DNA of 64,000 bases from Patescibacteria group bacterium. Lineage in GTDB: Bacteria; Patescibacteriota; Patescibacteriia; XYB2-FULL-38-15. This document shows, piece by piece, positions 2,495 through 53,682 of the stretch. Position 1 is the stretch's first letter, and each line of letters starts with the position of its first letter. The stretch lies in assembly GCA_041737355.1 (NCBI GenBank), contig JBGSRW010000007.1:10556-74555 (forward strand), read 5' to 3'. Under the pieces are notes generated by a model that saw only the letters and a list, made by a program, of their open reading frames with translations, searched no databases and was not told the DNA's origin. Both the position numbers and the translations under genes were made by a program.

Positions 2495-3451
2495 CTAAAT
2501 CACGAACGTACTCTGGCCGGGGCGCCTTTCAGCATCCCAAACCTGGTTTCGTCCGTGAGCCTTGGCCTGCAGAGCCGCCCGGCTGGCTTTCCTTACCAAT
2601 CCCTCGACCGTGCCGCCCTGAATGAAGTTAGCGACGCCGATACTCACGGTGACCACGAGCCGCTGGCCGCTGTCGCGAAGAATAATCGGCGCCTTTTCCA
2701 TCGCCGATCTGATTTTCTCCGCCAGAATCATTGCGCCGCTCTTTTCGGTTTCCGGCAAGATAACGGCGAATTCGTCGCCGGCATAACGGGCGAGCAAATC
2801 CGTCTCGCGGGTGTTGGATCCGAAGACGCTGGCCGCGGCCTGGAGAACCCTGTCTCCGACCGTGTGGCCGTGGGGCGTATTGACTCTTTTCTTGAAATCG
2901 TCGACGTCAATGAAAAGAAGCGACAAGGAACGACGAAACCGCTTGGCTCGCTCGACTTCGTCGTTGATCCGTTCATCGAAAGCCCGCCGGTTGGGAATCC
3001 TTGTTACTGGATCGGTCCGGTTTTCCCGTTCGAGTTTGGTAATAATTCTTTTCTTTTCGGCTTCAAGCTCAACTTCGCGGCTCACGTCTTTCCCGACGAA
3101 AATCGCGCCCTGGAAACAGTCCTCGTCGCACACAACCTCGAGAGAAAAAAGCAGAGGCACCGTTCCTCCGCCCTCTCTCGAGAAAATGCGCCGCTCGGAA
3201 ATTTTTTCTTCTCCCGAGAAAAGTCTCTTCTCGGCTGTTTCCCAGAAAACCGCGTCGTCAAAAATCGAAAGAAAATCAAAAAGATTTTTCCCCTCCGCTT
3301 TGTTTGCCGCACAGCCGAACAAACATTCAGCTCCGGAGCTGCAGATCGTTATCCTCTTGTCTTTGCCGGCAACGAGGACGGCATCTGACCTTTGTCTCAC
3401 GATAGTTTCGTAGAAACTTATCCGCTGCCGCAAGCCGACGATATTTCTCAT
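2495..3451 (-). CDS. PAS-domain diguanylate cyclase (GGDEF)
   Basis: C-terminal 'RYAGDEFAVILPE' GGDEF active-site motif, with a PAS-like N-terminal region. GGGAGGA RBS upstream of the start. The gene is about 58-60% GC, clearly above its neighbours. Confidence 0.8.
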   Translation of the reverse strand: MRNIVGLRQRISFYETIVRQRSDAVLVAGKDKRITICSSGAECLFGCAANKAEGKNLFDFLSIFDDAVFWETAEKRLFSGEEKISERRIFSREGGGTVPLLFSLEVVCDEDCFQGAIFVGKDVSREVELEAEKKRIITKLERENRTDPVTRIPNRRAFDERINDEVERAKRFRRSLSLLFIDVDDFKKRVNTPHGHTVGDRVLQAAASVFGSNTRETDLLARYAGDEFAVILPETEKSGAMILAEKIRSAMEKAPIILRDSGQRLVVTVSIGVANFIQGGTVEGLVRKASRAALQAKAHGRNQVWDAERRPGQSTFVI

Positions 3452-19451: not shown

Positions 19452-19480
19452 GGGGCGGGGTTTTCCCGCCCCATTTCTCG
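19452..19480 (+). terminator. GC-rich hairpin inside the pilin array (attenuator or partial terminator)
   Basis: 8 bp G/C stem GGGGCGGG-GTTTT-CCCGCCCC followed by ATTTCT (weak U tract), between pilin genes 5 and 6. Confidence 0.4.
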
Positions 19481-19493
19481 ATTGAACATCGGT

Positions 19494-19862
19494 ATGTTTC
19501 CAAACTTTAAAAAAATTTCTAAACTTTTTTACGGCTTAACACTGCTTGCAATCCTTGCTGCGCCGGCTTTTGTTTCGGCTGTGGATACCGGCCTTGAAAA
19601 TTCGGCTGGGGCGGCCGGCATTGAAAAATTTGATATTGCCACGAAGATCGGAGATATCGTCTCAACCGTTCTGGGTTTTGTCGGGGTTCTCTTTCTAATT
19701 TTAATGATCTATGGCGGCCTTATGTGGATGACGGCCGGCGGAAAAGAAGAACAGCTGGGTAAGGCTAAAAAAACTATCACTGCCGCCGTAGTCGGAATTA
19801 TTATCGTCTTTTCCGCTTACGCCATAACTTTTTTCGTCACCGAAACTTTACTCGGAAGATGA
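19494..19862 (+). CDS. pilin-like protein 6
   Basis: Start placed at the ATG after the hairpin (MFPNFKK...). Module 'IGDIVSTVLGFVGVLFLILMIYGGLMWMTAGGKEEQLGKAKKTITAAVVGIIIVFSAYAITFF'. Confidence 0.5.
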   Translation: MFPNFKKISKLFYGLTLLAILAAPAFVSAVDTGLENSAGAAGIEKFDIATKIGDIVSTVLGFVGVLFLILMIYGGLMWMTAGGKEEQLGKAKKTITAAVVGIIIVFSAYAITFFVTETLLGR

Positions 19863-20683
19863 AACTCCAATATAAAATTTTAAGTTTTTTTCTTTTAACC
19901 CTGGCGGGTTTTTTGTTTCTCAACACCGACTTCGCCGCGGCGGGAAGATGCGAATGCTGTTATAGCAGGATTGGGGAAGCCGCTACCGAATCCGCCTGCT
20001 CGTCAATGTGCCGTGATTTCGGGGACTGGAAATATTTCGCGAGCGGTGATCCCGCGACTACCGGCCGAACAAACTCGACCGCCTGCCTGCCTCCCGAAGG
20101 AATGTGTTTTTGCTGCTGGGCAGACGCGCCAGAATCAGGAACGATGCTCCAGGCGGCCTGTATCGGCGCCTGCACTGACAAAGGCAGCGTGAAATCTTTT
20201 CGCTCAACTGTTACTTCTCTTAATTTAACCCGCGATTGCCTGCCCCGCCCAGTAGACGCCATTGGCTGCACCGGCGACGCCGATTGCCCGACCGGGCAAG
20301 TGTGCGGCGACATAGAAGACGGCGTGGGTTTTTGTTCGTCTCCATCTGAACCAACCTCCGGGGAAACTTCTAATCCGGAACTCGATGCGCCGACCGGAGT
20401 TTTAAGCGGCGGCCTGCAAAAAGCCGCGGGCAAAGCCGGGTTCCAATCTACTTCGGTAGAAAATATCGTAAGTAACATTGTTTATGTAATTCTAAGTTTT
20501 GTTGGTGTAATCTTTTTGGCACTGACAATTTATGCGGGTTTTATTTGGATGACCGCCGGCGGCAATACGGAAGATGTGGAAAAAGCCAAAAAAATCCTTG
20601 AACGGGCCGCTGTTGGTCTCGTCGTCGTCCTTGCCGCTTACGCAATTACCTATTTTGTAACCACCCAAATTATCACTCCATAA
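19859..20683 (+). CDS. pilin-like protein 7 with Cys-rich N-terminal ectodomain
   Basis: ATGA start/stop overlap with gene 6. About 150 aa with 22 Cys ('RCECCYS', 'CFCCW', 'CTGDADCPTGQVCG'). Module 'IVSNIVYVILSFVGVIFLALTIYAGFIWMTAGGNTEDVEKAKKILERAAVGLVVVLAAYAITYF'. Confidence 0.55.
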   Translation: MKLQYKILSFFLLTLAGFLFLNTDFAAAGRCECCYSRIGEAATESACSSMCRDFGDWKYFASGDPATTGRTNSTACLPPEGMCFCCWADAPESGTMLQAACIGACTDKGSVKSFRSTVTSLNLTRDCLPRPVDAIGCTGDADCPTGQVCGDIEDGVGFCSSPSEPTSGETSNPELDAPTGVLSGGLQKAAGKAGFQSTSVENIVSNIVYVILSFVGVIFLALTIYAGFIWMTAGGNTEDVEKAKKILERAAVGLVVVLAAYAITYFVTTQIITP

Positions 20684-20704
20684 AATATCTAAAATAACAA
20701 ATCT

Positions 20705-21139
20705 ATGAAGTCACTCCAAAAAATTTTTATCATCTCTTGCCTAATGTGTTCCCTGGCCGCCTTATCCCTGCCTTTGCTTTCTTCGGCAGCCGGAACGGAT
20801 GACGCACTGGAAAAATTAAAAACCGTCGGCGGAGCGGCTTATGGAACGGAGGAACCGCGGAGTCTCCCTGAAATTGCGGGAAGCGTTATAAAAACAGTCC
20901 TTACTATTCTCGGCGTCCTTGCGGCCCTTTTGATTATTTACAGCGGCTATGTTTGGATGACAGCCCGCGGCAAGGAAGAAAGAGTAACCAAGGCAAAGGA
21001 CACTTTGGAGGCGGCAATTATCGGTCTGATTATTATTATGGCCGCCTACGCGATTACCTATTTCGTGGTTAACGCCATCTCGGGCGCCACGGGGGGTGCT
21101 CCTTCGGGATCTACCACCCCTCCACCCACTACTCCGTAA
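20705..21139 (+). CDS. pilin-like protein 8, Thr/Pro tail
   Basis: Module 'IAGSVIKTVLTILGVLAALLIIYSGYVWMTARGKEERVTKAKDTLEAAIIGLIIIMAAYAITYF'. Tail 'GGAPSGSTTPPPTTP'. Confidence 0.55.
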   Translation: MKSLQKIFIISCLMCSLAALSLPLLSSAAGTDDALEKLKTVGGAAYGTEEPRSLPEIAGSVIKTVLTILGVLAALLIIYSGYVWMTARGKEERVTKAKDTLEAAIIGLIIIMAAYAITYFVVNAISGATGGAPSGSTTPPPTTP

Positions 21140-21163
21140 GCTTTCTAAACCTAATTTAAAAAT

Positions 21164-21580
21164 ATGTCCCTAACACCAAAAAAAATATTCTCATTTTTTC
21201 TCCTTGCTGCTCTTTGTTTCTCTGTTCTTACCATTTTTTCCCCGGCAACAACTTTTGCCCAGATCAATGAATTAAAAAATTTTGGCAACGAGGCCTACGG
21301 AAACTCCTCGGCCACCTACCAAGAACAAGGTCCGGTCTTCATCGCCGGAAAAATTATCAACGCGGCTCTTGGGGTTGTTGGCATTATCATGGTTATTCTT
21401 TTTATTTACGGCGGCTATGTTTGGATGACAGCTGGCGGCAATGAAGAAAAGGTTAAAAAGGCAACGCAAATTCTTTCCCGAGCGGTTATTGGCCTGATTA
21501 TTATCTTATTGGCCTATAGCATTTCCTACTTTGTTATGCAGCAGCTCTTAAGGTCAACCGGAGCGCCGATGGTGCCATAA
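21164..21580 (+). CDS. pilin-like protein 9
   Basis: Module 'IAGKIINAALGVVGIIMVILFIYGGYVWMTAGGNEEKVKKATQILSRAVIGLIIILLAYSISYF'. Confidence 0.55.
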   Translation: MSLTPKKIFSFFLLAALCFSVLTIFSPATTFAQINELKNFGNEAYGNSSATYQEQGPVFIAGKIINAALGVVGIIMVILFIYGGYVWMTAGGNEEKVKKATQILSRAVIGLIIILLAYSISYFVMQQLLRSTGAPMVP

Positions 21581-21604: not shown

Positions 21605-21638
21605 AATCCTCTCGAAGAAACGAGAGGATTTTTAATTT
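21605..21638 (+). terminator. rho-independent terminator closing the pilin-like array
   Basis: Perfect 10 bp stem AATCCTCTCG-AAGAAA-CGAGAGGATT followed by TTTAATTT. Confidence 0.65.
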
Positions 21639-21697: not shown

Positions 21698-22195
21698 CTA
21701 GTAGTGGCCGATCTGAACCCTTTGTTCCTCCCAGCCGGCGCAGAAGGTCGCCTCGCGACCACTACGCACTACCGGACGGGAAAAATCCGGTGGCAAATAC
21801 CCTTCGAACTCGAAGTGGTGCTGTTCGCACCCCGAGTCGAGGTCCGTCTCGTCGAGCGCGGTGTAGAAAACCGCGTCCTGACCCGGCGGGATCAGCGGCA
21901 GGCCGACCGTCTGGTCGGTAAAGCTGATGTCCGCCCCATCCATGCGGACACGGATGTACCAATCCGTGCCGTTGGCGAGACGGACCATGTGCGGTCCTCT
22001 CCAGGCCCCGGGGTAGCCGTGGCCGTTCACGAAGGCCAGGTCGCCCGGAGGCGGCGGCGGAACGAAGTAACCGCCGCCGTAGCCCGCCATCGTGCCATAG
22101 GCCGACGGCGGAATGTAGCTCGGTGGCTGGCTGTAGCCGCCGAAGAGTCCGCAGCCGAAAGTCAAGAACATCGCCAGCGTCAGTGCGTACCTCAT
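21698..22195 (-). CDS. GC-rich putative lipoprotein (Gly/Pro/Tyr-rich)
   Basis: Start placed at the second Met (MRYALTLAMFLTFGCGLFGG), which is preceded by GGAGGAG and shares the FGCGL signal with the 8399 gene. About 63% GC. Overlaps the upstream gene by ATGA. Confidence 0.5.
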   Translation of the reverse strand: MRYALTLAMFLTFGCGLFGGYSQPPSYIPPSAYGTMAGYGGGYFVPPPPPGDLAFVNGHGYPGAWRGPHMVRLANGTDWYIRVRMDGADISFTDQTVGLPLIPPGQDAVFYTALDETDLDSGCEQHHFEFEGYLPPDFSRPVVRSGREATFCAGWEEQRVQIGHY

Positions 22196-22575
22196 CGTTG
22201 CTCCTCCTCGATGTGTTCGCTGCACATTTCCGTGAGCTCCTGCACGTCTCTTTCGAGGCCGGTTGCCCGCGTTTCGAGTGCCGGCGATGGGCCGTACGAC
22301 GACGGGTAGTAGTAGGACGGATCAACCCGCCCATACCCGCCATAACCGTAGCCGCGATAGCCCAGGAAAAGCTCGGGATGAGCTTCCATGGCCCGCGCCT
22401 CGGCCCGCACCCGGTCGGCCTGAGCCGACGTAAGGTCGGCCTGAGCCGCCTCCATGGGCGAAGGGCCCATGAAACCGCTGGCCGAGTACTCTACACCCTG
22501 GCTCCGGAGCCCCATTGAGGCACCGAAGCACCCGGACACCGCGAAAACCGCGAGAACAGCAAAGAAAAACCTCAT
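22192..22575 (-). CDS. GC-rich putative lipoprotein (Gly/Tyr-rich)
   Basis: Start at MRFFFAVLAVFAVSGC (lipobox-like), preceded by GGAGGAG. 'GYRGYGYGGYG' and 'YYYPSSYGPSP' low-complexity stretches. About 62% GC. Confidence 0.5.
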   Translation of the reverse strand: MRFFFAVLAVFAVSGCFGASMGLRSQGVEYSASGFMGPSPMEAAQADLTSAQADRVRAEARAMEAHPELFLGYRGYGYGGYGRVDPSYYYPSSYGPSPALETRATGLERDVQELTEMCSEHIEEEQR

Positions 22576-22795
22576 TTTCTCCTCCTCTAGGGTCACTGAC
22601 CCTTGTTTTAGAAAGAAAAAGAACCTTCCGTACCCCCATTAAGAGGCAGGACATTTTACTTTAACATAAAATCGTATTTTCGTCAAGAGGCAAAGAATCT
22701 TTATTTTTAGCCAAAAAAGAATGGTTTCCTAGCGTTTTTCCCTGTCTTGACCCGGCCTTTTGTGGATAAATTGTTTATAACCCCGGAAAAATCGC

Positions 22796-33393: not shown

Positions 33394-33408
33394 AAAATCT
33401 AAAACTCC

Positions 33409-34101
33409 TTATTTTATTTTAAATATGCGAAATAAATTAGTGAGTCTTCTTTCGGCGTTGGGAATATCAACGTCAAAATCCTTTACCCCTTTTTTATATA
33501 ATTCCCTGAGGTAAAGAGAGCACGAAAAAATCCAACAATAATCATAATCAAAATGTTTCTTTTCCATATTGTACCGACTGAAACTAGTAATCTTACTGCT
33601 TGGACATCTAACATCCCAAAATATTAACAATGGCTCTTGCGTATATGGGTCATCGATATCCCTATTGTTTTTTCTCATTTTAATTAGCACTTTATTCAAT
33701 CCGTTTTCGTCGCTATCGTTAAGTTCCAGAACGTCTTTTACCCAGTTTCTATTTGTCTTTTCCAAAAGATCGCGCTCGCTAATATCTACCGGCACATCTA
33801 ACCCTCCCATCGATCTGGAACACCAGCTTTTTATTTCTGTCTGAAAAAGTGTCTGCTTATCCTTAGTTTTCTCTATTATCCATCGATCCAACCGTCTACC
33901 CCTTATTGTGCCAAGTACTGGGATTTCTTTATTGGCATCAATTATTTGAACATTAGAGCCGCGCTCTTTTTCGCAGTAATGCTTGAATAGTGCTGCCCCC
34001 AGATCTTCCCCGACGACAGAAATGGCCGCGGTTGTATCTCCATAGCCAGTCGATTTTTTTATATCGAAGTATTCAAGCAATTCCTTTATATATAACTTCA
34101 T
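33409..34101 (-). CDS. hypothetical protein (possible PD-(D/E)xK-like nuclease) in AT-rich defense island
   Basis: 230 aa, about 30% GC. 'RLDRW...QTEIKSW' could be a D...ExK motif, but this is weak. No family recognised. Confidence 0.35.
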   Translation of the reverse strand: MKLYIKELLEYFDIKKSTGYGDTTAAISVVGEDLGAALFKHYCEKERGSNVQIIDANKEIPVLGTIRGRRLDRWIIEKTKDKQTLFQTEIKSWCSRSMGGLDVPVDISERDLLEKTNRNWVKDVLELNDSDENGLNKVLIKMRKNNRDIDDPYTQEPLLIFWDVRCPSSKITSFSRYNMEKKHFDYDYCWIFSCSLYLRELYKKGVKDFDVDIPNAERRLTNLFRIFKIK

Positions 34102-34121
34102 AAATTTGTTTTTTTGATTTT

Positions 34122-34148
34122 GGGCAGAGGAGTTAGGGGCGAATGCCC
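34122..34148. repeat. 27 bp imperfect-dyad element, copy 2 (GGGCAGAGGAGTTAGGGGCGAATGCCC)
   Basis: See copy 1. Lies 21 nt upstream of the start of the 33409-34101 gene on the minus strand. Confidence 0.6.
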
Positions 34149-34163
34149 TGGAGCCAAGACGCC

Positions 34164-35150
34164 TTATTGTATTTCAAATTCTTGATCAACTTCTAATAAA
34201 TGAGTTTTTAACTCGTTAATTCCAGCGTCAAGAGCGTCAATGTAAACTTCAAGTTCATAATTTTCAAAATTACCTGTATTTTTAAATGTTTCGATTTTGC
34301 TAAATACATAATCTAGTTTTTTGATTACTTCTTCTGTTCCGGGAATCCTCAAAGTTTCGCCAAATTTACCATAACGATTTTCTAAACTTTTTCTTATTTT
34401 TTTATATAATTCGTAATAATGATTAAAACTAGGCCATGCTAAATGGTCATTCCAAGAAACACCATAAATAAGATTTATCTGATACAGAGAAGGTTTGTTT
34501 AATAGATCAGATAATTTTTCATTTTTAAATATTTTTTTATGTTGTTTCTCTTCTTTTTGAATCTCTTTCATAACTATTTCTAATTCATTTCCGAGATGTT
34601 TATCTTGCTGACTAATAATATCCGAAAATTTTATCGTTTTACTTTCTGTTTTTGAATGCATCCACAGCACATATCGGAAACCGTCTTTACTCAAAGACGA
34701 ACGGTCAATAGTACAAGAGGTAATTTCATCATTTTCAAATTTTGATTTTTTGCCTTTGTTTTCTTTTTTAACAGGGTGCCCTATGGTTTCGTTTCTGACT
34801 TGTCTAATTTTAAATAGTTCAAAATATTTTTTGTCTTTCCAATCAATTTTATTACTTATACCAAATAAGGATATTTTTAAAAAGTTTACGGCGTCTTGTT
34901 GAATAAAAAGAGCTTGTAAAAGTCCGTAAGTCGCTAGATATGGATTTTTTATAAATAAATCATTTGGATCTTTTTGGAAATTTTCGATTGCTAAGCAGGT
35001 ATCCTCAAGCGTATCTAATGCCGCACAAAATTGATTCCAGTCTCCGCTCTGTTTTCTAGAATAAACTTGTGTCTTTTTTATTGTTGAATTATTAAAAAGC
35101 TCTCTAATCTGATGACTAACTTCCAAAATTTTAAATTTATTATCAACCAT
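34164..35150 (-). CDS. hypothetical protein with HEPN-like Rx5H motif (Abi-like candidate)
   Basis: 328 aa, AT-rich. 'KIRQVRNETIGHPV' fits the HEPN R-x(4-6)-H motif. Size and motif position are reminiscent of AbiD/AbiF (Abi_2) proteins. This is inference only. Confidence 0.35.
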   Translation of the reverse strand: MVDNKFKILEVSHQIRELFNNSTIKKTQVYSRKQSGDWNQFCAALDTLEDTCLAIENFQKDPNDLFIKNPYLATYGLLQALFIQQDAVNFLKISLFGISNKIDWKDKKYFELFKIRQVRNETIGHPVKKENKGKKSKFENDEITSCTIDRSSLSKDGFRYVLWMHSKTESKTIKFSDIISQQDKHLGNELEIVMKEIQKEEKQHKKIFKNEKLSDLLNKPSLYQINLIYGVSWNDHLAWPSFNHYYELYKKIRKSLENRYGKFGETLRIPGTEEVIKKLDYVFSKIETFKNTGNFENYELEVYIDALDAGINELKTHLLEVDQEFEIQ

Positions 35151-35169
35151 AGCCGAGACTCCTTAATAT

Positions 35170-36420
35170 TTATGCAGCGAGCGCAAATAATTGTTGCTGA
35201 GCACATGTAGGTGCTTCGATTTCTTCTTTAACTTCACCGTTAAGCATTTTTATTATCATATCTCCAATATAATATCCAAGATTTACAGGCACAGCATTTC
35301 CTATTTGCTTGTACTGCTGGGAAACAGAACCGGAAAATTTCCAATTATCTGGAAACGTCTGAATTCGTGCATATTCGCGTACTGTTAAAGGGCGTGTTTC
35401 TTCCGGATGACAACGTTCAGTCTGTTTTTGGGCTGGGCTGCAAGTTAAAGTTAAAGAAGGTTCATCCCATGATAATCGCCTCGCCATACCAGTTTTACCG
35501 CCACCCATAAAATAACTAGCCCCCATATATTCTTTTTGAAGATTTTCTGGGAGATCTCTCCAATATCCACCCGGAGGAATTAATTCCAATATTTTTTTCT
35601 TTTTTGGGGGGTACTCTTGACCCTCAGATTTTGGACATTTATAGAATGCTTCGCGCAAGGGGATTATGTAGTCTTTTTCTTTGGGGAATGAAATAGGGAT
35701 ATCTAGATCTTTTCTAACTCCAATAATTATTAAGCGCTCTCTTTTTTGTGGGATATCTAAATATTGAGATCGTAAAATTTTGTATTTGACTCTATATCCG
35801 AGTTCTTCCAAAACACTAACCATCGTTTTAATCGTTCTTCCGTCATCATGGTTTAATAAACCTTTAACATTTTCGCCGATCGCAATTTTTGGCTTAACTT
35901 CCTTGACGCATCTGGCAAATTCAAAAAACAAAGTCCCCCTTATATCTTCAAACCCCATTTTGTTTCCAGCACAAGAAAAAGCCTGACAAGGAAAACCGCC
36001 TTGAACTATATCAGCTTGTCCTTCAAAAAATTTAAGTTCCCTAATATCACCTTCGACCACGTTCCAGTTTGGTTTATTTGTTCGAAGTGTTTCGCAGGCA
36101 TGCTTGTCATATTCGTTTAGTAGAACATGATCAATTCCTGCATTTTCCATTCCTAAGGCAGTACCACCAGCGCCGGCAAATAGCTCAATCGCTGTATACG
36201 GAGACATTTTATGATTTTTTAAAATTTTAAATTTACTTTTTTTATCTCCGCTTGTCCTATTTTGAATCCTTTCTATTTCATCTAAGCAAAATATGCGATC
36301 ATTCCTCTCATTCCGAAAAGCTTTTATCAGTCCTTTTTTATCCCATCTTCTAATGGTATCTATGGAAGTACCTAATTTTAAAGCCACTTCTCCAGCAGTA
36401 AAAAATTTATCGTTTTTCAT
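35170..36420 (-). CDS. DNA (cytosine-5)-methyltransferase with N-terminal MerR-type HTH
   Basis: C5-MTase motifs: I 'ELFAGAGGTALGMENAG', IV 'GGFPCQAFSCAGN', VI 'ENVKGL', X 'QIGNAVPV'. The first ~60 aa form a MerR-like HTH ('FTAGEVALKLGTSIDTIRRWDKKGLI'). Confidence 0.9.
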   Translation of the reverse strand: MKNDKFFTAGEVALKLGTSIDTIRRWDKKGLIKAFRNERNDRIFCLDEIERIQNRTSGDKKSKFKILKNHKMSPYTAIELFAGAGGTALGMENAGIDHVLLNEYDKHACETLRTNKPNWNVVEGDIRELKFFEGQADIVQGGFPCQAFSCAGNKMGFEDIRGTLFFEFARCVKEVKPKIAIGENVKGLLNHDDGRTIKTMVSVLEELGYRVKYKILRSQYLDIPQKRERLIIIGVRKDLDIPISFPKEKDYIIPLREAFYKCPKSEGQEYPPKKKKILELIPPGGYWRDLPENLQKEYMGASYFMGGGKTGMARRLSWDEPSLTLTCSPAQKQTERCHPEETRPLTVREYARIQTFPDNWKFSGSVSQQYKQIGNAVPVNLGYYIGDMIIKMLNGEVKEEIEAPTCAQQQLFALAA

Positions 36421-36427
36421 AAAAAAA

Positions 36428-36448
36428 TGATAGATAACTAATCTATCA
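36428..36448. promoter_or_regulatory. palindromic candidate operator TGATAGAT-AACTA-ATCTATCA upstream of the MTase gene
   Basis: Perfect 8 bp inverted repeat, 8 bp upstream of the MTase start. Plausible binding site for the MTase's own HTH (autoregulation, as in SsoII-type systems). Confidence 0.4.
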
Positions 36449-36482
36449 TAATTCTACCATATAACCTTTGCCTAGGCAATGG

Positions 36483-37190
36483 TTATTTTGTGGAAAAAGC
36501 TAATTTAAATAGCTCAAAATACTTTCGAGCTTCCCTTTTGCTTAATTTAAACTTATATTTATCCACCAAAATATGGGACAGCGCCTCAAATAGCTCCTGC
36601 AGAGCATACTTTCGGCCAGTAGCTAGGGCATAAAAGCTTATGCCATCAATTACCCTGATATTTTTAACCCTCGGCCGTCGTTTTTTAGTCTTGTTGTCTG
36701 AGGGCGTAAAAGGTTTATCATACTTATGTTTTCCCTGTGGTATAACTTCCACATAATATCCAATAAAGTCTTTGTATTTTACATTTTTAAGTTTAGATTT
36801 TATGGCGTCATAGATTTCAACCTTATGATTGCCCTTTGTTGTATTAAATTTATTTTTTACTTCAACAATAATTTTCATATTATCACTTGCGACATCTAAC
36901 ACTCCACCCACGCCGAGGTTTTTCCAACCCGGAACAGCTCCTAAAATTTCTTGATGAAAATCACCAATAGCATTTTGCATTGTTTTTTGAGATTGCCTGG
37001 CTTTTTCTTGTTCGATCCATTCTTTATAAGTTATGGCATGTGTTACACCATGAAATAAGGCAGAAAAAGGGTCAATAACATTTTTATGCAGATTATTGCC
37101 CGCTTCATGTTCCGCTGTTTCTATTATTTTAACAACCTTTCCTACGGCGGAAATCAAGTTTTTGTCGGATATAAATTTTAGGTAGGGCAT
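36483..37190 (-). CDS. Type II restriction endonuclease (PD-(D/E)xK; Eco47II-like?)
   Basis: 235 aa immediately upstream of, and co-oriented with, the C5-MTase. 'LDVASDNMKIIVEVK' is a D-x11-E-x-K catalytic signature. The family assignment (Eco47II/Sau96I-like) is from memory only. Confidence 0.5.
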   Translation of the reverse strand: MPYLKFISDKNLISAVGKVVKIIETAEHEAGNNLHKNVIDPFSALFHGVTHAITYKEWIEQEKARQSQKTMQNAIGDFHQEILGAVPGWKNLGVGGVLDVASDNMKIIVEVKNKFNTTKGNHKVEIYDAIKSKLKNVKYKDFIGYYVEVIPQGKHKYDKPFTPSDNKTKKRRPRVKNIRVIDGISFYALATGRKYALQELFEALSHILVDKYKFKLSKREARKYFELFKLAFSTK

Positions 37191-37345
37191 AAATAATGAT
37201 TAAAGTTAATAAAATTGTTTTATACGTGCCTCTATTGTCCTTCGGCTTAACTTGAATATTGTGCTAATTTTCTGTATAATTTAAATAAGTTTATGTTATT
37301 AGAGCATAGCAACAAATACGCCCTAATGCAACGATATTTTACCTT

Positions 37346-50205: not shown

Positions 50206-51354
50206 TTATTTTTTAATTGGCATGACGATGTAGAGGTAGTTTGCGCCTTCGGCTTTTGGCCGTAAGAGGCAGGGGCTTTCGCCCGAAGTGAGTTCAAGAG
50301 AAACCTCTTCTGTTTCCATCGCCCCTAGCCCGTCCAACAAATATCGGTAATTCAAAGTAATTTCATTGTTTTCTCCCTCAATTTCCGCTTCAAGTTTAAC
50401 TGTGTTTTCTCCAAACTGGGAATTGGCCGAAGAAAGAACGAGCTCGCCGCCCTTTTCTTTGCCTGGCTTAAAATCAAAAGCTACGTCAAAAATTCCCGGC
50501 TTGGCAAACAGACTTGCTGTTTTTATAACCCTAACCAAATCGTTGCGGTTAAAGGTCGCCCGGGTTTTCCAGCTTGAAGGAATAATTTGTTTGTAATCCG
50601 GATACTGGCCGTCGATAACCCTTGAGATCAAATCAACGCTGTTTAAGGAAAACAAGACCTGATTTTCGGCGAGATAGACTTTGAGAATATTCGGCGCTTC
50701 GGGATCTTCCGTGTCCCGGAAAACGGAAAGAATTCTTAGAACCTCCTGCATGGTGCGGGCCGGCACGATTACTTCACGGGTATTTTCGTTTTCCCCGCCG
50801 GCAAGCTCTACGCTCTTCTCTGCCAGTCTGTAGCTGTCGGTTGCCGCCACGGTAACCCGCTTCTTTGTTCCGTCAAAACGCAGAAGTATCCCGCTTATCT
50901 CCGGCCTGATTTCGTTAGTCGAAGTGGCAAAAATAACCTGGTTGATCGCCTCCCTGAATTTTCCAACATCAACACCGTAGGCCGAGTCTTTACTAATCTC
51001 CGGAATTAAAGGAAACTCCGCGGTGGCAGCGCCCCTTATTTTTGTTTCAAAATTTTTACATTTTATTTCCAACGTCTGGTCTTTTAACTCAAGGTCGATT
51101 TTTTCGTTTGGCAAAGACCCGACGTAATCGGCAAAAAGTTTAGCCGGCAAAGTAATCGCCCCATCCCCGTCTATTTTTCCCCGGACTCCGCATTTTATAC
51201 CGATTTCAAGGTTTGTGGCGAGAAGAGTAATTACTCCGCCCTCTGCCCTAAAAAGAACGTTGTTTAAAATTGGTAAATTAACATTCTTGCTCGCGATATG
51301 GCTGGAAATTAAAAGTCCGCGGTTTAGGTTTTCTTGGGTGCAAGAAAGTTTCAT
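50206..51354 (-). CDS. dnaN: DNA polymerase III subunit beta (sliding clamp)
   Basis: 382 aa. 'ENLNRGLLISSHIASKNVNLPILNNVLF' is the typical DnaN N-terminus. Confidence 0.9.
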   Translation of the reverse strand: MKLSCTQENLNRGLLISSHIASKNVNLPILNNVLFRAEGGVITLLATNLEIGIKCGVRGKIDGDGAITLPAKLFADYVGSLPNEKIDLELKDQTLEIKCKNFETKIRGAATAEFPLIPEISKDSAYGVDVGKFREAINQVIFATSTNEIRPEISGILLRFDGTKKRVTVAATDSYRLAEKSVELAGGENENTREVIVPARTMQEVLRILSVFRDTEDPEAPNILKVYLAENQVLFSLNSVDLISRVIDGQYPDYKQIIPSSWKTRATFNRNDLVRVIKTASLFAKPGIFDVAFDFKPGKEKGGELVLSSANSQFGENTVKLEAEIEGENNEITLNYRYLLDGLGAMETEEVSLELTSGESPCLLRPKAEGANYLYIVMPIKK

Positions 51355-51593
51355 ATCAATACAATTTTATTTTTTAATTTTATATACTTAGTAATAATAA
51401 GCTTTTGTTTTTTTGTGGATAAGGGGTAAAAAGCTTTTAACAGAAAGAAATTTTGAAACCGCAACCTGTGGAAAATTTTTTGCAACCTGTGTATGGTTTT
51501 GGGGAGAGGGAGATTTAAAGGAATTTTATCCCCTGTTTAGAGATTTTTCTTCACAACCTTATCCACCCCCTTTTCCCCTTTTTGTCCGGAATT
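51355..51593. promoter_or_regulatory. candidate oriC (DnaA boxes + AT-rich DUE) in dnaA-dnaN intergenic region
   Basis: Perfect DnaA box TGTGGATAA at 51414-51422. 8/9 boxes at 51467-51475 and 51559-51567. 55 bp AT-rich stretch at 51355-51410. Direct repeat GCAACCTGTG twice, 21 bp apart. Confidence 0.5.
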
Positions 51594-52967
51594 TTAATTG
51601 CTGTAAAGACGTTGTTTGATTTGCTCGATTTCTTGTTTCAGGCGATCACTGGTTTCTATTTCGTTGGAGATTTTTTCGAAAGCATGCATCGCCGTTGTGT
51701 GGTCACGCCCGCCGAGCTCCTGGCCGATCGCCGGATAAGAACTTTGCAGTTCCTTGCGCATCAGATACATTATTATCTGGCGCGGGAAAGCGAGTCTTTT
51801 TTCCCGGCTCTGCCCGAGAAGTTCTTCAAGCTTCAGGTCGTAGAATTCGGCCACAAAATTGATAAGTTGTTTTGGGGTTGCGGATTTTCTTCCCAGGGCG
51901 ACCTGGGGAAGCAGGATGTTCTTGATAAGGTCAAGGCCGAGAGTAACATGCTGAAATTGCTGGTGGGCGATAATTTTATTTAAAGCTCCCTCAAGTTCGC
52001 GGATATTATTTTGGATGGCGGAGGCAATATAGTTGATAATATCCGAATCGAGGACGAGTTCTTTTTCAACGCATTTTGCTTTTAAAATGGCGATTCTTGT
52101 TTCATAATCCGGTTGGGAAATATCGGCGATCATTCCCCATTCAAAGCGGGAGATAAGCCTTTGTTCAAGGGCGGGAATGGCTTTGGGGGGCCGGTCTGAG
52201 GTCATGACAATTTGTTTGTCCGACTGATGAAGATCGTTGAAGGTATGGAAAAATTCCTGCTGGGTTCCGTCTTTCGCGGCCATAAATTGTACGTCGTCAA
52301 TTAAAAGGAGATCGGCGGAACGGTAATTCTGTTTGAATCTTTCCATGGTTCGGCCCTTGATTGCCTGGACATAATCGTTGGTAAACTTTTCGCTGGTTAT
52401 ATAAATAATTTTTTTGTTGGAGTCGGCGGCGAGAAGAGAATGGCCGATGGCCTGAAGAAGGTGGGTTTTCCCCAAGCCCACTCCCCCATAAATAAAAAGC
52501 GGGTTATAAGTGCTTTTACCCGGGTTATTTGCCACGGCTTGAGCCGCGGCATGCGCCAATTCGTTGTTTTTTCCGATGATAAAATTGGCGAAAGTATATT
52601 TAGGATTTAAACCGAATTTATTTTGAACCGATTCTTTTTTACACTCTTCGTTTCTCGGTTCAGCAACGCGAGAAGACGAGGAAACGGTCGCCGTTTCCAT
52701 TTTTTGGGTCTGGGGTTTTACCATTTCTACCCGATAAACAACTTCTTTGATTTGCGGCCCGACAAAATTTTGCAGGGATTTTAAGATTGATTGGTGATAC
52801 TTTTTTTCAAGCCACGCTTTGGTAAAAGTATTTGGGACGCTAATTAAAACCTTTGCTTCCTCGATACAAGAAACCGCGGTATTTTTAAACCAAGTCGTAA
52901 AATTGGCTTTACTCAAGTTTAGTTCCAGCTCGCCGAGCACTGCCTGCCAAAGTTGTTGGTTAGTCAT
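51594..52967 (-). CDS. dnaA: chromosomal replication initiator DnaA
   Basis: AAA+ 'GGVGLGKTHLLQAIG' motif and C-terminal DNA-binding domain 'IMYLMRKELQSSYPAIGQELGGRDHTT'. Confidence 0.95.
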   Translation of the reverse strand: MTNQQLWQAVLGELELNLSKANFTTWFKNTAVSCIEEAKVLISVPNTFTKAWLEKKYHQSILKSLQNFVGPQIKEVVYRVEMVKPQTQKMETATVSSSSRVAEPRNEECKKESVQNKFGLNPKYTFANFIIGKNNELAHAAAQAVANNPGKSTYNPLFIYGGVGLGKTHLLQAIGHSLLAADSNKKIIYITSEKFTNDYVQAIKGRTMERFKQNYRSADLLLIDDVQFMAAKDGTQQEFFHTFNDLHQSDKQIVMTSDRPPKAIPALEQRLISRFEWGMIADISQPDYETRIAILKAKCVEKELVLDSDIINYIASAIQNNIRELEGALNKIIAHQQFQHVTLGLDLIKNILLPQVALGRKSATPKQLINFVAEFYDLKLEELLGQSREKRLAFPRQIIMYLMRKELQSSYPAIGQELGGRDHTTAMHAFEKISNEIETSDRLKQEIEQIKQRLYSN

Positions 52968-53086
52968 ACGAGGAAGAGTTATGGTGGATTTGGATCACCT
53001 TTTCTAATATACCACAGAAACAGAGTCGATAAAATGGTCTGTAAAGAGGCAAAAAGTGAATAAGGTGTTGATGAGTTGGGGAAAAC

Positions 53087-53341
53087 TTATTTTAACGGGT
53101 CAAAGCCGCCTTTAGAAAAAGGATTACAGCGTAAAACCCGCCAAAAAGCCTTTATTCCCCCCACCCAAATACCGTATTTTTCGATTGCTGCGTAGCCATA
53201 TTCCGAACAAGTTGGGTGAAAACGGCAGAAACCATTGGGGAAAAGAAAGGAAAAGAAGCCGTGGTCAAAAGAAAGAGTTTTTTGGTAAAATTTGACGGTT
53301 TTGAGTACCGTCTTCCTGGCAATAACGGTGAAAATAGTCAT
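53087..53341 (-). CDS. yidD: membrane protein insertion efficiency factor YidD
   Basis: 'CRFHPTCSEYGYAAIEKYG' is the conserved YidD motif. Confidence 0.85.
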   Translation of the reverse strand: MTIFTVIARKTVLKTVKFYQKTLSFDHGFFSFLFPNGFCRFHPTCSEYGYAAIEKYGIWVGGIKAFWRVLRCNPFSKGGFDPLK

Positions 53342-53682
53342 TTACAAAGTATTTTGAAATAAGAAAGGCCGGCTAAAAGGTCTTTTTCCAGCGTTTGGTA
53401 TGTTTTTTCGGTTGCTCCCGGCAGGGCGGAAATGATCAGGTCATATCCGGGAGATATTTTTTTAAGATTTATCCCAACAATTTCCCGCAATTGCCTTTTT
53501 ATTTTATTCCGTTCAGTCGCTTTTTTGGAAATTTTGTTTCCTACCACGAAGCCAAAACGGGAAAGCTGCTTGCCGTTATTTAACAATTTAAATCCAAGTA
53601 TTTTTGTATAAAAAGACCGCCCAGATTTCCAGATTTTTTGGAAATCTTTGTCGCTTTGGAGGCGGTGCTGTTTGGGCAGCAT
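53338..53682 (-). CDS. rnpA: ribonuclease P protein component
   Basis: 114 aa basic protein beginning 'LPKQHRLQSDKDFQKIWKSG' with the 'KATERNKIKRQLRE' RNR-like motif. Overlaps yidD by 4 bp. Confidence 0.85.
   Translation of the reverse strand: MLPKQHRLQSDKDFQKIWKSGRSFYTKILGFKLLNNGKQLSRFGFVVGNKISKKATERNKIKRQLREIVGINLKKISPGYDLIISALPGATEKTYQTLEKDLLAGLSYFKILCK

Follow-up and report, generated by a model that had tools for sequence, protein, structure and literature searches.

We analysed a window of 64 kb (the whole stretch of DNA presented above), which is a chromosomal region of a Falkowbacteria-related member of the Patescibacteria, and identified in it an operon-like array of nine tandem genes encoding small proteins with a pilin domain of the type IV secretion system (T4SS). 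The genes rpoB and rpoC lie just downstream of the array. In the product of the seventh gene (paralog 7), a Cys-rich extracytoplasmic domain of 134 residues, referred to here as the head, is placed between a signal peptide and the conserved pilin anchor. This architecture was proposed in a first-pass annotation made from the sequence alone and is supported by our analysis. The features of the array, of paralog 7 and of the second Cys-rich pilin used for comparison (paralog 4), with the basis of each assignment in brackets, are the following.

16340-21580, plus strand: operon-like array of nine tandem VirB2-like (PF18895, T4SS_pilin) genes, in which paralog 7 occupies slot 7 (Pfam)
18127-19011, plus strand: paralog 4, carrying the comparison head, 294 residues from the ATG at 18127, 20 Cys (sequence)
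19859-20683, plus strand: open reading frame (ORF) of paralog 7, 274 residues, ATG to TAA, 16 Cys
19859-19862, plus strand: ATGA start/stop overlap of paralogs 6 and 7 (seen in the sequence)
19859-19942, plus strand: Sec-type signal peptide, residues 1-28, MKLQYK, hydrophobic core and FAAA followed by G (read by eye; helix at residues 3-23 in the AlphaFold2 (AF2) model)
19943-20086, plus strand: module A, residues 29-76, six Cys, CxCC-x12-C-x3-C-x24-C, GRCECCYSRIGEAATESACSSMCRDFG…STAC (hhalign, AF2)
20096-20239, plus strand: module A', residues 80-127, six Cys, CxCC-x14-C-x3-C-x21-C, EGMCFCCWADAPESGTMLQAACIGACTDKG…RDC (hhalign)
20264-20335, plus strand: four-Cys knot, residues 136-159, GCTGDADCPTGQVCGDIEDGVGFC (alignment, AF2)
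20336-20455, plus strand: acidic Ser/Pro/Thr/Glu linker, residues 160-176, then the conserved pre-anchor motif APTGVLSGGLQKAAGKAGFQSTS, residues 177-199 (invariant columns)
20447-20659, plus strand: PF18895 anchor of paralog 7, residues 197-267, two hydrophobic helices with the loop GGNTEDVEKAKK (Pfam, AF2)
19920-20149, plus strand: island of divergence from the ~95% identical strain L005, putatively due to recombination (maximum chi-square scan)
21607-21637, plus strand: hairpin and T-run after paralog 9, the probable terminator of the array (seen in the sequence)

The C-termini of all nine ORFs match PF18895 above the gathering score of the family, and the intergenic distances along the array are 7, 3, 1, 56, 57, -4, 21, and 24 nt. 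For paralog 7 the match (38.5 bits, cut-off 26.6) extends over profile positions 2-71 of 71, and the two helices of the anchor are placed by AF2 at residues 200-232 and 237-272, on either side of the GGNTEDVEKAKK loop. The first-pass annotation had spoken of a pilin module; the shared C-terminal pilin anchor is indeed present, but it is not that of a type IV pilin. None of the type IV pilus families in Pfam is matched by paralog 7, and its N-terminus (MKLQYKILSFFLLTLAGFLFLNTDFAAAG) lacks the prepilin-peptidase site (G followed by F/M-x-x-x-E); its pilin module moreover sits at the C-terminus, and that of type IV pilins at the N-terminus. In the Pfam scan paralog 7 has no match to PF04956 (TrbC/VirB2), and paralogs 3 and 6 match this family below threshold (22.0 and 22.6 bits, cut-off 27.9). 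The NCBIfam model NF045849 (pilin-like conjugal transfer protein), which represents pilins of Mycoplasma integrative and conjugative elements (ICEs), aligns to paralog 7 with 29.3 bits, below the cut-off of 40 (E = 4.9e-7). Because of the PF18895 matches, together with the sub-threshold matches to PF04956 and to the Mycoplasma ICE pilins, the array proteins are classified as VirB2-like pilins of the T4SS and not as type IV pilus subunits. VirB2-like arrays of 2-11 genes have been described in 383 assemblies of the Candidate Phyla Radiation (CPR), and a pilin gene was found near virB4 in 1,135 of 1,948 CPR assemblies, so that ~40% are unlinked (10.1101/2025.01.22.634366). With nine contiguous PF18895 genes the array falls within the range of 2-11 tandem pilin genes that defines a CPR VirB2 array, and it is retained in at least eight related contigs.

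Anchor identity to paralog 7 among the array paralogs is 28-46%. In terms of anchor sub-clades, paralog 4 is 74% identical to paralog 3, and paralog 7 is 48% identical to paralog 6. A PDB sequence search with the anchor gave no real match. Elsewhere in the database, the 120 closest relatives of the anchor have lengths of 73-166 residues without exception, which makes long heads unusual for this pilin family. A consensus scan for promoters and terminators gave nothing above shuffled sequences, and the hairpin at 21607-21637 was not listed by it. A further GC-rich hairpin with an 11-bp stem is located between paralogs 5 and 6 (19449-19475). Paralog 6 probably starts at the ATG at 19494 and not at the GTG at 19446, and paralog 4 probably starts at the ATG at 18127 and not at the TTG at 18115, because the database protein P0007 is 294 residues long.

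The ORF of paralog 7 is a real gene which is conserved and under purifying selection, and exactly the same protein is present in the database (P0001). The ectodomain had been reported to contain 22 cysteines; we counted 16, at residues 31, 33, 34, 47, 51, 76, 83, 85, 86, 101, 105, 127, 137, 143, 149, and 159. Cys thus makes up 11.9% of the 134-residue head; the background, taken from 39 other genes of the window, is 0.62% (binomial P ~5e-16). All five motifs quoted for the ectodomain (RCECCYS, CSSMCRDF, CFCCWAD, CIGACTD, and CTGDADCPTGQVCG) were found in the protein, and the ATGA overlap with paralog 6 was described correctly: the start codon of paralog 7 overlaps the upstream TGA stop codon in ...GGAAGATGAAAC... 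This 4-nt overlap is kept in six relatives (L001, L004, L005, L006, L011, and L013). The head-coding part of the gene (19943-20344) has a GC content of 58% and the anchor-coding part (20445-20683) of 41%. An antisense ORF of 172 residues (19960-20478) runs across the head-coding region; it is probably a shadow of the GC-rich head-coding stretch.

Profile-profile alignment of the families of module A and module A' with hhalign gave a probability of 89.6% (E = 1.9e-6, z = 7.5), and none of 100 column shuffles scored as well. This result indicates that the head holds an internal tandem duplication of a 48-residue six-Cys module, which was missed in the first-pass annotation. The tripeptide CLP directly follows both modules, and the number of Cys is even in each unit (6 + 6 + 4). 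AF2 models of both headed pilins were of low confidence (mean pLDDT, the predicted local distance difference test score, of 56.6 for paralog 7 and 47.7 for paralog 4), and their secondary structure alone was used. In both modules of paralog 7 the CxCC motif is predicted on a strand and the Cx3C motif on a helix, with a strand-helix-strand order in module A, and in the model of paralog 4 the CxC(C) and Cx3C motifs are placed in the same way. The four-Cys knot is the best predicted part of the head (pLDDT ~67-72). Module A' is the most conserved part and is found in all seven members of the family. The knot is confined to the window and L005; the other orthologues lack the knot and have a six-Cys C-terminal tail instead. 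In headless orthologues of slot 7, a motif equivalent to APTGVLSGGLQKAAGKAGFQSTS follows directly after the signal peptide.

With the head as query, a word-indexed search of 5.8e9 proteins recovered the protein of the window and five others, which share 50-78% identity in the head and all contain PF18895. When the head profile was run exhaustively as a hidden Markov model (HMM) against 1.84e9 cluster representatives, four true members were obtained; a fifth match, to the 1062-residue repeat protein P0012, was rejected as spurious. Scanning genome contigs with the head profile revealed no further genome, and the scan of metagenomes returned only the already known 168-kb contig. Sequence searches of Pfam, NCBIfam, and PDB with the head identified no relative. 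Every Cys is invariant in all orthologues that have the corresponding module. Pairwise dN/dS ranged from 0.08 to 0.22 for the head and from 0.03 to 0.17 for the anchor (0.03-0.2 for the whole gene) in a set of five orthologues with saturated dS in all but one of the pairs, and the values for the head indicate purifying selection. The head is kept in at least five related genomes. It is a real and constrained domain that is limited to one small clade, and its six-Cys module is a small domain absent from current domain libraries.

The surroundings of the array are stable. In every related contig the gene order is BipA, EamA, MamF-like, NTP transferase, SBP, eight or nine pilins, two small reverse ORFs, rpoB, rpoC, and YebC. 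Short pilins occupy slots 1, 5, 6, 8, and 9 throughout the relatives. The heads of slots 2, 3, 4, and 7 are very different, with 0-30 Cys, in genomes whose RpoB N-termini are 89-95% identical. In slot 2, the window has a Cys-free, Ala-rich head of ~200 residues (16836-17711), and the heads of L001 (7753-8703) and L006 (549-1508) contain 28-30 Cys, which means that the whole slot 2 head was replaced between close relatives. The slot 2 gene of the window also contains a perfect 18-nt tandem repeat (17202-17240). Slot 4 is absent from L001 and L006. In slot 7, two CxCC modules are combined with the knot in the window and L005, and with a six-Cys C-terminal tail in L004 (7846-8721) and L006 (2777-3679). 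The orthologue of L001 (10001-10714) has a single CxCC module and the tail, and those of L008 (7325-7813), L011 (7055-7558), and L013 (7031-7522) have the tail alone, without a CxCC module. The tail follows the second membrane helix and occurs in two sequence types among the slot 7 orthologues. Since Cys-rich decorations are found at the N-terminus, the C-terminus, or both, the pattern fits a topology in which both ends are extracytoplasmic, as in VirB2. Some module types recur between slots: in relatives, CxCC…Cx3C modules are also present at the ends of the heads of slots 2 and 3, where they align to module A (E = 0.0024, 0 of 100 shuffles as good), and L004, L001, and L006 share the knot type of paralog 4 in their slot 2 heads, with scores above every decoy in the first two iterations of the search.

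Within paralog 7 the comparison with strain L005 revealed a divergent segment. The window and L005 are 90-100% identical in paralogs 6 and 8 and in the 3' two-thirds of paralog 7. A maximum chi-square scan placed 97 of the 206 differences in 230 of the 1828 aligned columns (chi-square 223, reached in 0 of 200 permutations), corresponding to an identity of ~58% within the island. In a sliding window the identity is 55-67% at 19900-20140 and recovers gradually by ~20260. Third codon positions differ at 54 of 103 sites in the head, compared to 30 of 172 in the rest of the gene (P = 2.7e-9). dS relative to L005 is ~2.0 for module A and 0.19 for the anchor, and pS is 0.70 in the divergent segment. 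Divergence is elevated at synonymous sites too, which suggests that the island has a different ancestry and has not merely evolved faster. The alleles of module A are of two types, one in the window and L004 and the other in L005 and L006, and these types cut across the pairing of the anchors (window with L005, L006 with L001). We therefore consider it likely that a segment of the head has been replaced by recombination. The other possibility suggested in the first-pass annotation, rapid divergence of the heads on a constant anchor, is confirmed both by the variation of slots 2, 3, 4, and 7 among close relatives and by this island.

A sharp hypervariable island within the gene of a surface protein could also result from programmed variation, either by a diversity-generating retroelement (DGR) or by silent cassettes of the pilE/pilS type, and DGRs are common in Patescibacteria. 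However, neither the island nor the head turned up a second time in the window with BLASTN, TBLASTN, or a repeat search, and no reverse transcriptase was detected among the scanned ORFs. As there is no silent copy, template repeat, or reverse transcriptase in the window, a programmed cassette or DGR mechanism is unlikely. The differences are moreover spread over the entire segment, including synonymous sites, and are not concentrated in a few adenine-templated codons. We give programmed hypervariation a very small probability.

The head of paralog 4 is also Cys-rich, and the first-pass annotation had stated that it shares this richness with paralog 7 but not sequence, calling the two heads unrelated and suggesting independent acquisition. 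That they belong to different families today is indicated by most comparisons. BLASTP of the paralog 7 head against the paralog 4 head gave nothing significant, HMM-to-sequence comparisons with shuffled controls were mostly at background (25-418 of 500 shuffles as good), and the exhaustive search of 1.84e9 proteins with the paralog 7 head did not retrieve the paralog 4 family. Among the module pairs aligned with hhalign, 7A-4A, 7A-4B, 7B-4A, and even 4A-4B were not significant. An iterative HMM of the module, run on 21 heads and 630 decoys, found no new family above the best decoy. An iterative HMM of the paralog 4 knot did not recognise the knot of paralog 7; it drifted from iteration 3, and iterations 1 and 2 alone were counted as evidence. 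The anchors of paralogs 4 and 7 also fall in different sub-clades. Pairwise and profile alignments thus revealed no clear homology of the kind left by a simple duplication, and these results speak for two unrelated heads that were acquired independently and converged in their Cys pattern on a Cys-stabilised helix/strand motif.

Other observations argue against such an origin. Both heads are collinear, with two CxC(C)…Cx3C…C modules followed by one or more Cx5Cx5C knots, and hhalign of the whole heads gave a collinear local alignment (E = 0.01; 3 of 300 column shuffles as good). The second modules align in register over the pattern M-x3-[AE]-C-I-x2-C-x3-G (E = 8.7e-4; 1 of 100 shuffles as good). 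The HMM of paralog 4 matched the single-module orthologue P0005 with 9 bits, a score reached in 0 of 500 shuffles. When the module HMM of paralog 7 was calibrated with decoys, its best non-self match was an A' module of the paralog 4 family (1 of 1411 decoy domains as good). That relatives carry CxCC…Cx3C modules on their pilins of slots 2 and 3 points in the same direction. Given the collinear Cys framework and the weak alignment of the second modules, 'unrelated' is too strong a word and the claim that no sequence is shared needs qualification. We regard fully independent acquisition of the two heads as rather doubtful. For the CxC/Cx3C modules themselves, a distant common origin and convergence appear to be about equally probable. 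In our reading, the parts of which the heads are built came from a pool of small disulfide modules that exists at the level of the genus.

Taking these results together, we propose, with a probability of roughly 55%, that the head is a surface-exposed, disulfide-stabilised domain for host contact or adhesion, carried on a T4SS pilin and diversified by gain and loss of modules and by recombination. In the usual VirB2 topology both termini face the outside of the membrane and of the pilus. Paralog 7 would be exported by the Sec system, with the signal peptide cut after FAAA, and its C-terminal two-helix hairpin would insert into the membrane with both ends outside. The hairpin may stay in the membrane, or a T4SS whose genes lie elsewhere in the genome may polymerise it. 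The acidic linker would hold the 134-residue head on the surface of the cell or pilus. Within each module the CxCC strand would be cross-linked to the Cx3C helix, giving eight disulfides in the head, which could then act as a contact or adhesion domain for a host cell. Strain-to-strain diversity would arise from gain and loss of modules and from homologous recombination that replaces head segments and keeps the anchor constant. Disulfide bonding, surface exposure, incorporation into a pilus, and a role in adhesion or host specificity are in this way inferred from the properties of the protein. A role in host contact or host specificity is our best guess because no PrgB-type adhesins were found in CPR (10.1101/2025.01.22.634366), including their T4SS loci, and because pilin arrays can be essential for epibiosis, as shown for the epibiotic growth of Southlakia epibionticum (PMC10633639, PMC12857230).

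Several points weigh against this proposal. VirB4, VirD4, VirB6, VirB3, TrsD, and other T4SS genes were not found among the scanned ORFs of the window, nor does the window contain a Dsb or VKOR gene. The AF2 models are of too low confidence to fix the fold of the module or the pairing of the disulfides, and a Foldseek search of PDB returned nothing. As the head has no relative in Pfam, NCBIfam, or PDB, no function can be transferred by homology. The helical lattice of VirB2 pili might, for steric reasons, not accommodate a 15-kDa head on each subunit, and polymerisation into a pilus has not yet been demonstrated for any CPR pilin (PMC12857230).

Part of this evidence would equally suit a protein that is anchored in the membrane and never enters a pilus. 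The VirB2-like hairpin would then have been co-opted as a two-pass anchor, and the headed paralogs would be receptors, adhesins, or wall-associated proteins. Such a role would explain why no T4SS machinery was found within 64 kb, why the array lies amid housekeeping genes (SBP, rpoB/C) in all relatives, and why the lengths of the 120 nearest anchor relatives make long heads atypical of pilus subunits. However, headed and headless paralogs with near-identical anchor motifs are encoded in one operon, and the array of Southlakia epibionticum is located inside a T4SS cluster and is essential. The missing linkage is itself weak evidence, considering that ~40% of the CPR assemblies with pilins also have no link to virB4. 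We regard co-option as a membrane anchor as rather unlikely, though clearly less so than the two explanations that follow.

One of these treats the head as a pro-domain that is released at the conserved APTGVLSGGL junction, leaving a short pilin and a free disulfide-rich effector, toxin, or signal. The motif after the linker does match the mature N-terminus of headless slot 7 orthologues, and the combination of a CxC strand and a Cx3C helix recalls defensin-like Cys-stabilised peptides. Against cleavage, we found neither a protease gene nor a recognised cleavage motif, searches of Pfam, NCBIfam, and PDB linked the head to no family of toxins, bacteriocins, or defensins, and the C-terminal Cys-rich tails of the orthologues would be left unexplained; we consider it improbable. 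No more likely is a metal-binding or redox domain, in which the cysteines would bind Zn, Fe, or Cu or carry electrons, with no structural disulfides formed. In its favour, some metal-binding motifs look like the CxCC and Cx3C clusters, anoxic groundwater is the habitat of many Patescibacteria, and the window has no Dsb or VKOR gene. Yet the domain follows a Sec signal peptide and should be extracytoplasmic, every module has an even number of Cys, no conserved His or Asp partners are found beside them, and no metal-binding family of Pfam is matched. A disulfide-stabilised surface domain on a T4SS pilin remains the reading we prefer.

On a more tentative level, the four variable slots may together form a display platform on which disulfide modules are duplicated, lost, moved, and exchanged, and the resulting strain-specific heads might set the host range. 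Were this so, the platform would represent the missing 'adhesin' of CPR T4SS and a monoderm counterpart of antigenic and host-range variation. VirB2-like arrays are among the few gene sets for which an essential role in the epibiosis of a cultivated Patescibacteria bacterium has been shown. An adhesin for the CPR T4SS has not been found. The headed pilins are concrete candidates for host recognition: they are disulfide-rich by prediction, restricted to a clade, under purifying selection within alleles, and apparently swapped between near-identical strains. VirB2-like pilin arrays were already known; we found no description of modular Cys-rich heads or of their recombinational replacement at strain level in the literature searched.

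Several features of the genome outside the array were also noted. Based on RpoB, the nearest species-representative genomes (89, 89, and 85% identity) are two metagenome-assembled genomes of Candidatus Falkowbacteria and an 886-kb complete chromosome. The contigs L010, L013, and L016 (CAYZNO010000081.1, OZ246416.1, and CAZBLW010000001.1) are labelled 'uncultured Gammaproteobacteria bacterium'. These labels look wrong, with an RpoB identity to the window of 69-94% and the same pilin array in L013. The genes dnaN and dnaA are located at 50206-52967 on the minus strand, and the GC skew changes sign at ~52000-53500. This region is likely the replication origin, ~31 kb from the pilin array, and T4SS genes of CPR are often found near dnaA (10.1101/2025.01.22.634366). 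The two adjacent small ORFs that follow the array (175 and 134 residues; 21698-22596, minus strand) have a GC content of 64% in a window of 45% GC. Both have lipoprotein-like N-termini (…AVSGC and …LTFGC), are rich in Gly, Tyr, and Pro, and match no Pfam or NCBIfam family; in all relatives they keep their place between the array and rpoB. A low-GC island at 33400-37200 (34-38% compared to 45%) is probably a horizontally acquired restriction-modification system. It contains genes for an Eco47II-like restriction endonuclease (36483-37190, minus strand) and a C5 cytosine methyltransferase with a MerR helix-turn-helix domain (35170-36420, minus strand), and two further ORFs without a family match. 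A gene for a PAS-GGDEF diguanylate cyclase (2495-3451, minus strand) is present in this organism with a small genome.

Among known systems, the array most directly resembles the VirB2 arrays of other Patescibacteria/CPR, such as the one in Southlakia epibionticum ML1, where six pilin genes lie in the T4SS cluster, and the 'Sec-secreted array' of Nanosynbacter lyticus TM7x, all of the same PF18895 family. They have in common the tandem arrangement of divergent paralogs (28-46% anchor identity here compared to a reported average of ~25%), the Sec signal peptide with a two-helix hairpin, and the monoderm host. The array described here differs in that no virB4 lies next to it within the 64-kb window, and in that large N-terminal heads (up to ~240 residues and 30 Cys), C-terminal Cys tails, or both are present in four of the nine slots. 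The conjugative pilins of the VirB2/TrbC/TraA family (PF04956) are likewise small hairpins of two hydrophobic helices after a cleaved leader. These classical pilins, however, have no folded extra domain, and paralog 7 does not match their family. The anchor also aligns with the Mbov_0395 family of Mycoplasma ICEs (NF045849) over 70 of 80 profile positions, in line with the kinship reported between CPR T4SS and monoderm conjugation, although the score lies below the cut-off (29.3 compared to 40 bits) and the window offers no ICE context.

With regard to variation, the tandem variant pilin genes recall the amplification of VirB2 in Bartonella and Anaplasma, which is thought to widen interaction with host surfaces or antigenic variation (10.1101/2025.01.22.634366). 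In these diderm intracellular pathogens, however, the variation resides within the pilin body and no Cys-rich domains are appended. The modules of the head, units of ~45 residues with six Cys and a predicted Cx3C helix and CxC strand, bring to mind the CSαβ (Cys-stabilised αβ) motif of defensins and scorpion toxins. The Cys spacing and the predicted secondary structure fit this motif, in which Cx3C on a helix is bonded to CxC on a following strand (Ci-Cj, Ci+4-Cj+2). The order is reversed here, with the CxC strand first, no defensin or toxin family of Pfam is matched, and the models are of low confidence; the reversed Cys-stabilised helix/strand geometry is a possible lead and not an assignment to the superfamily. 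In Neisseria pilE, a constant part of the protein serves assembly and an exposed, disulfide-containing part is swapped by homologous recombination. PilE belongs to the type IV pilin family, unlike paralog 7, and here the window contains no silent cassettes and the exchange apparently takes place between lineages and is not programmed. What paralog 7 appears to share with PilE and with other recombining surface adhesins is the principle itself: the anchor is constant, and a segment of the exposed head is exchanged, as seen in the island that separates the window from L005.

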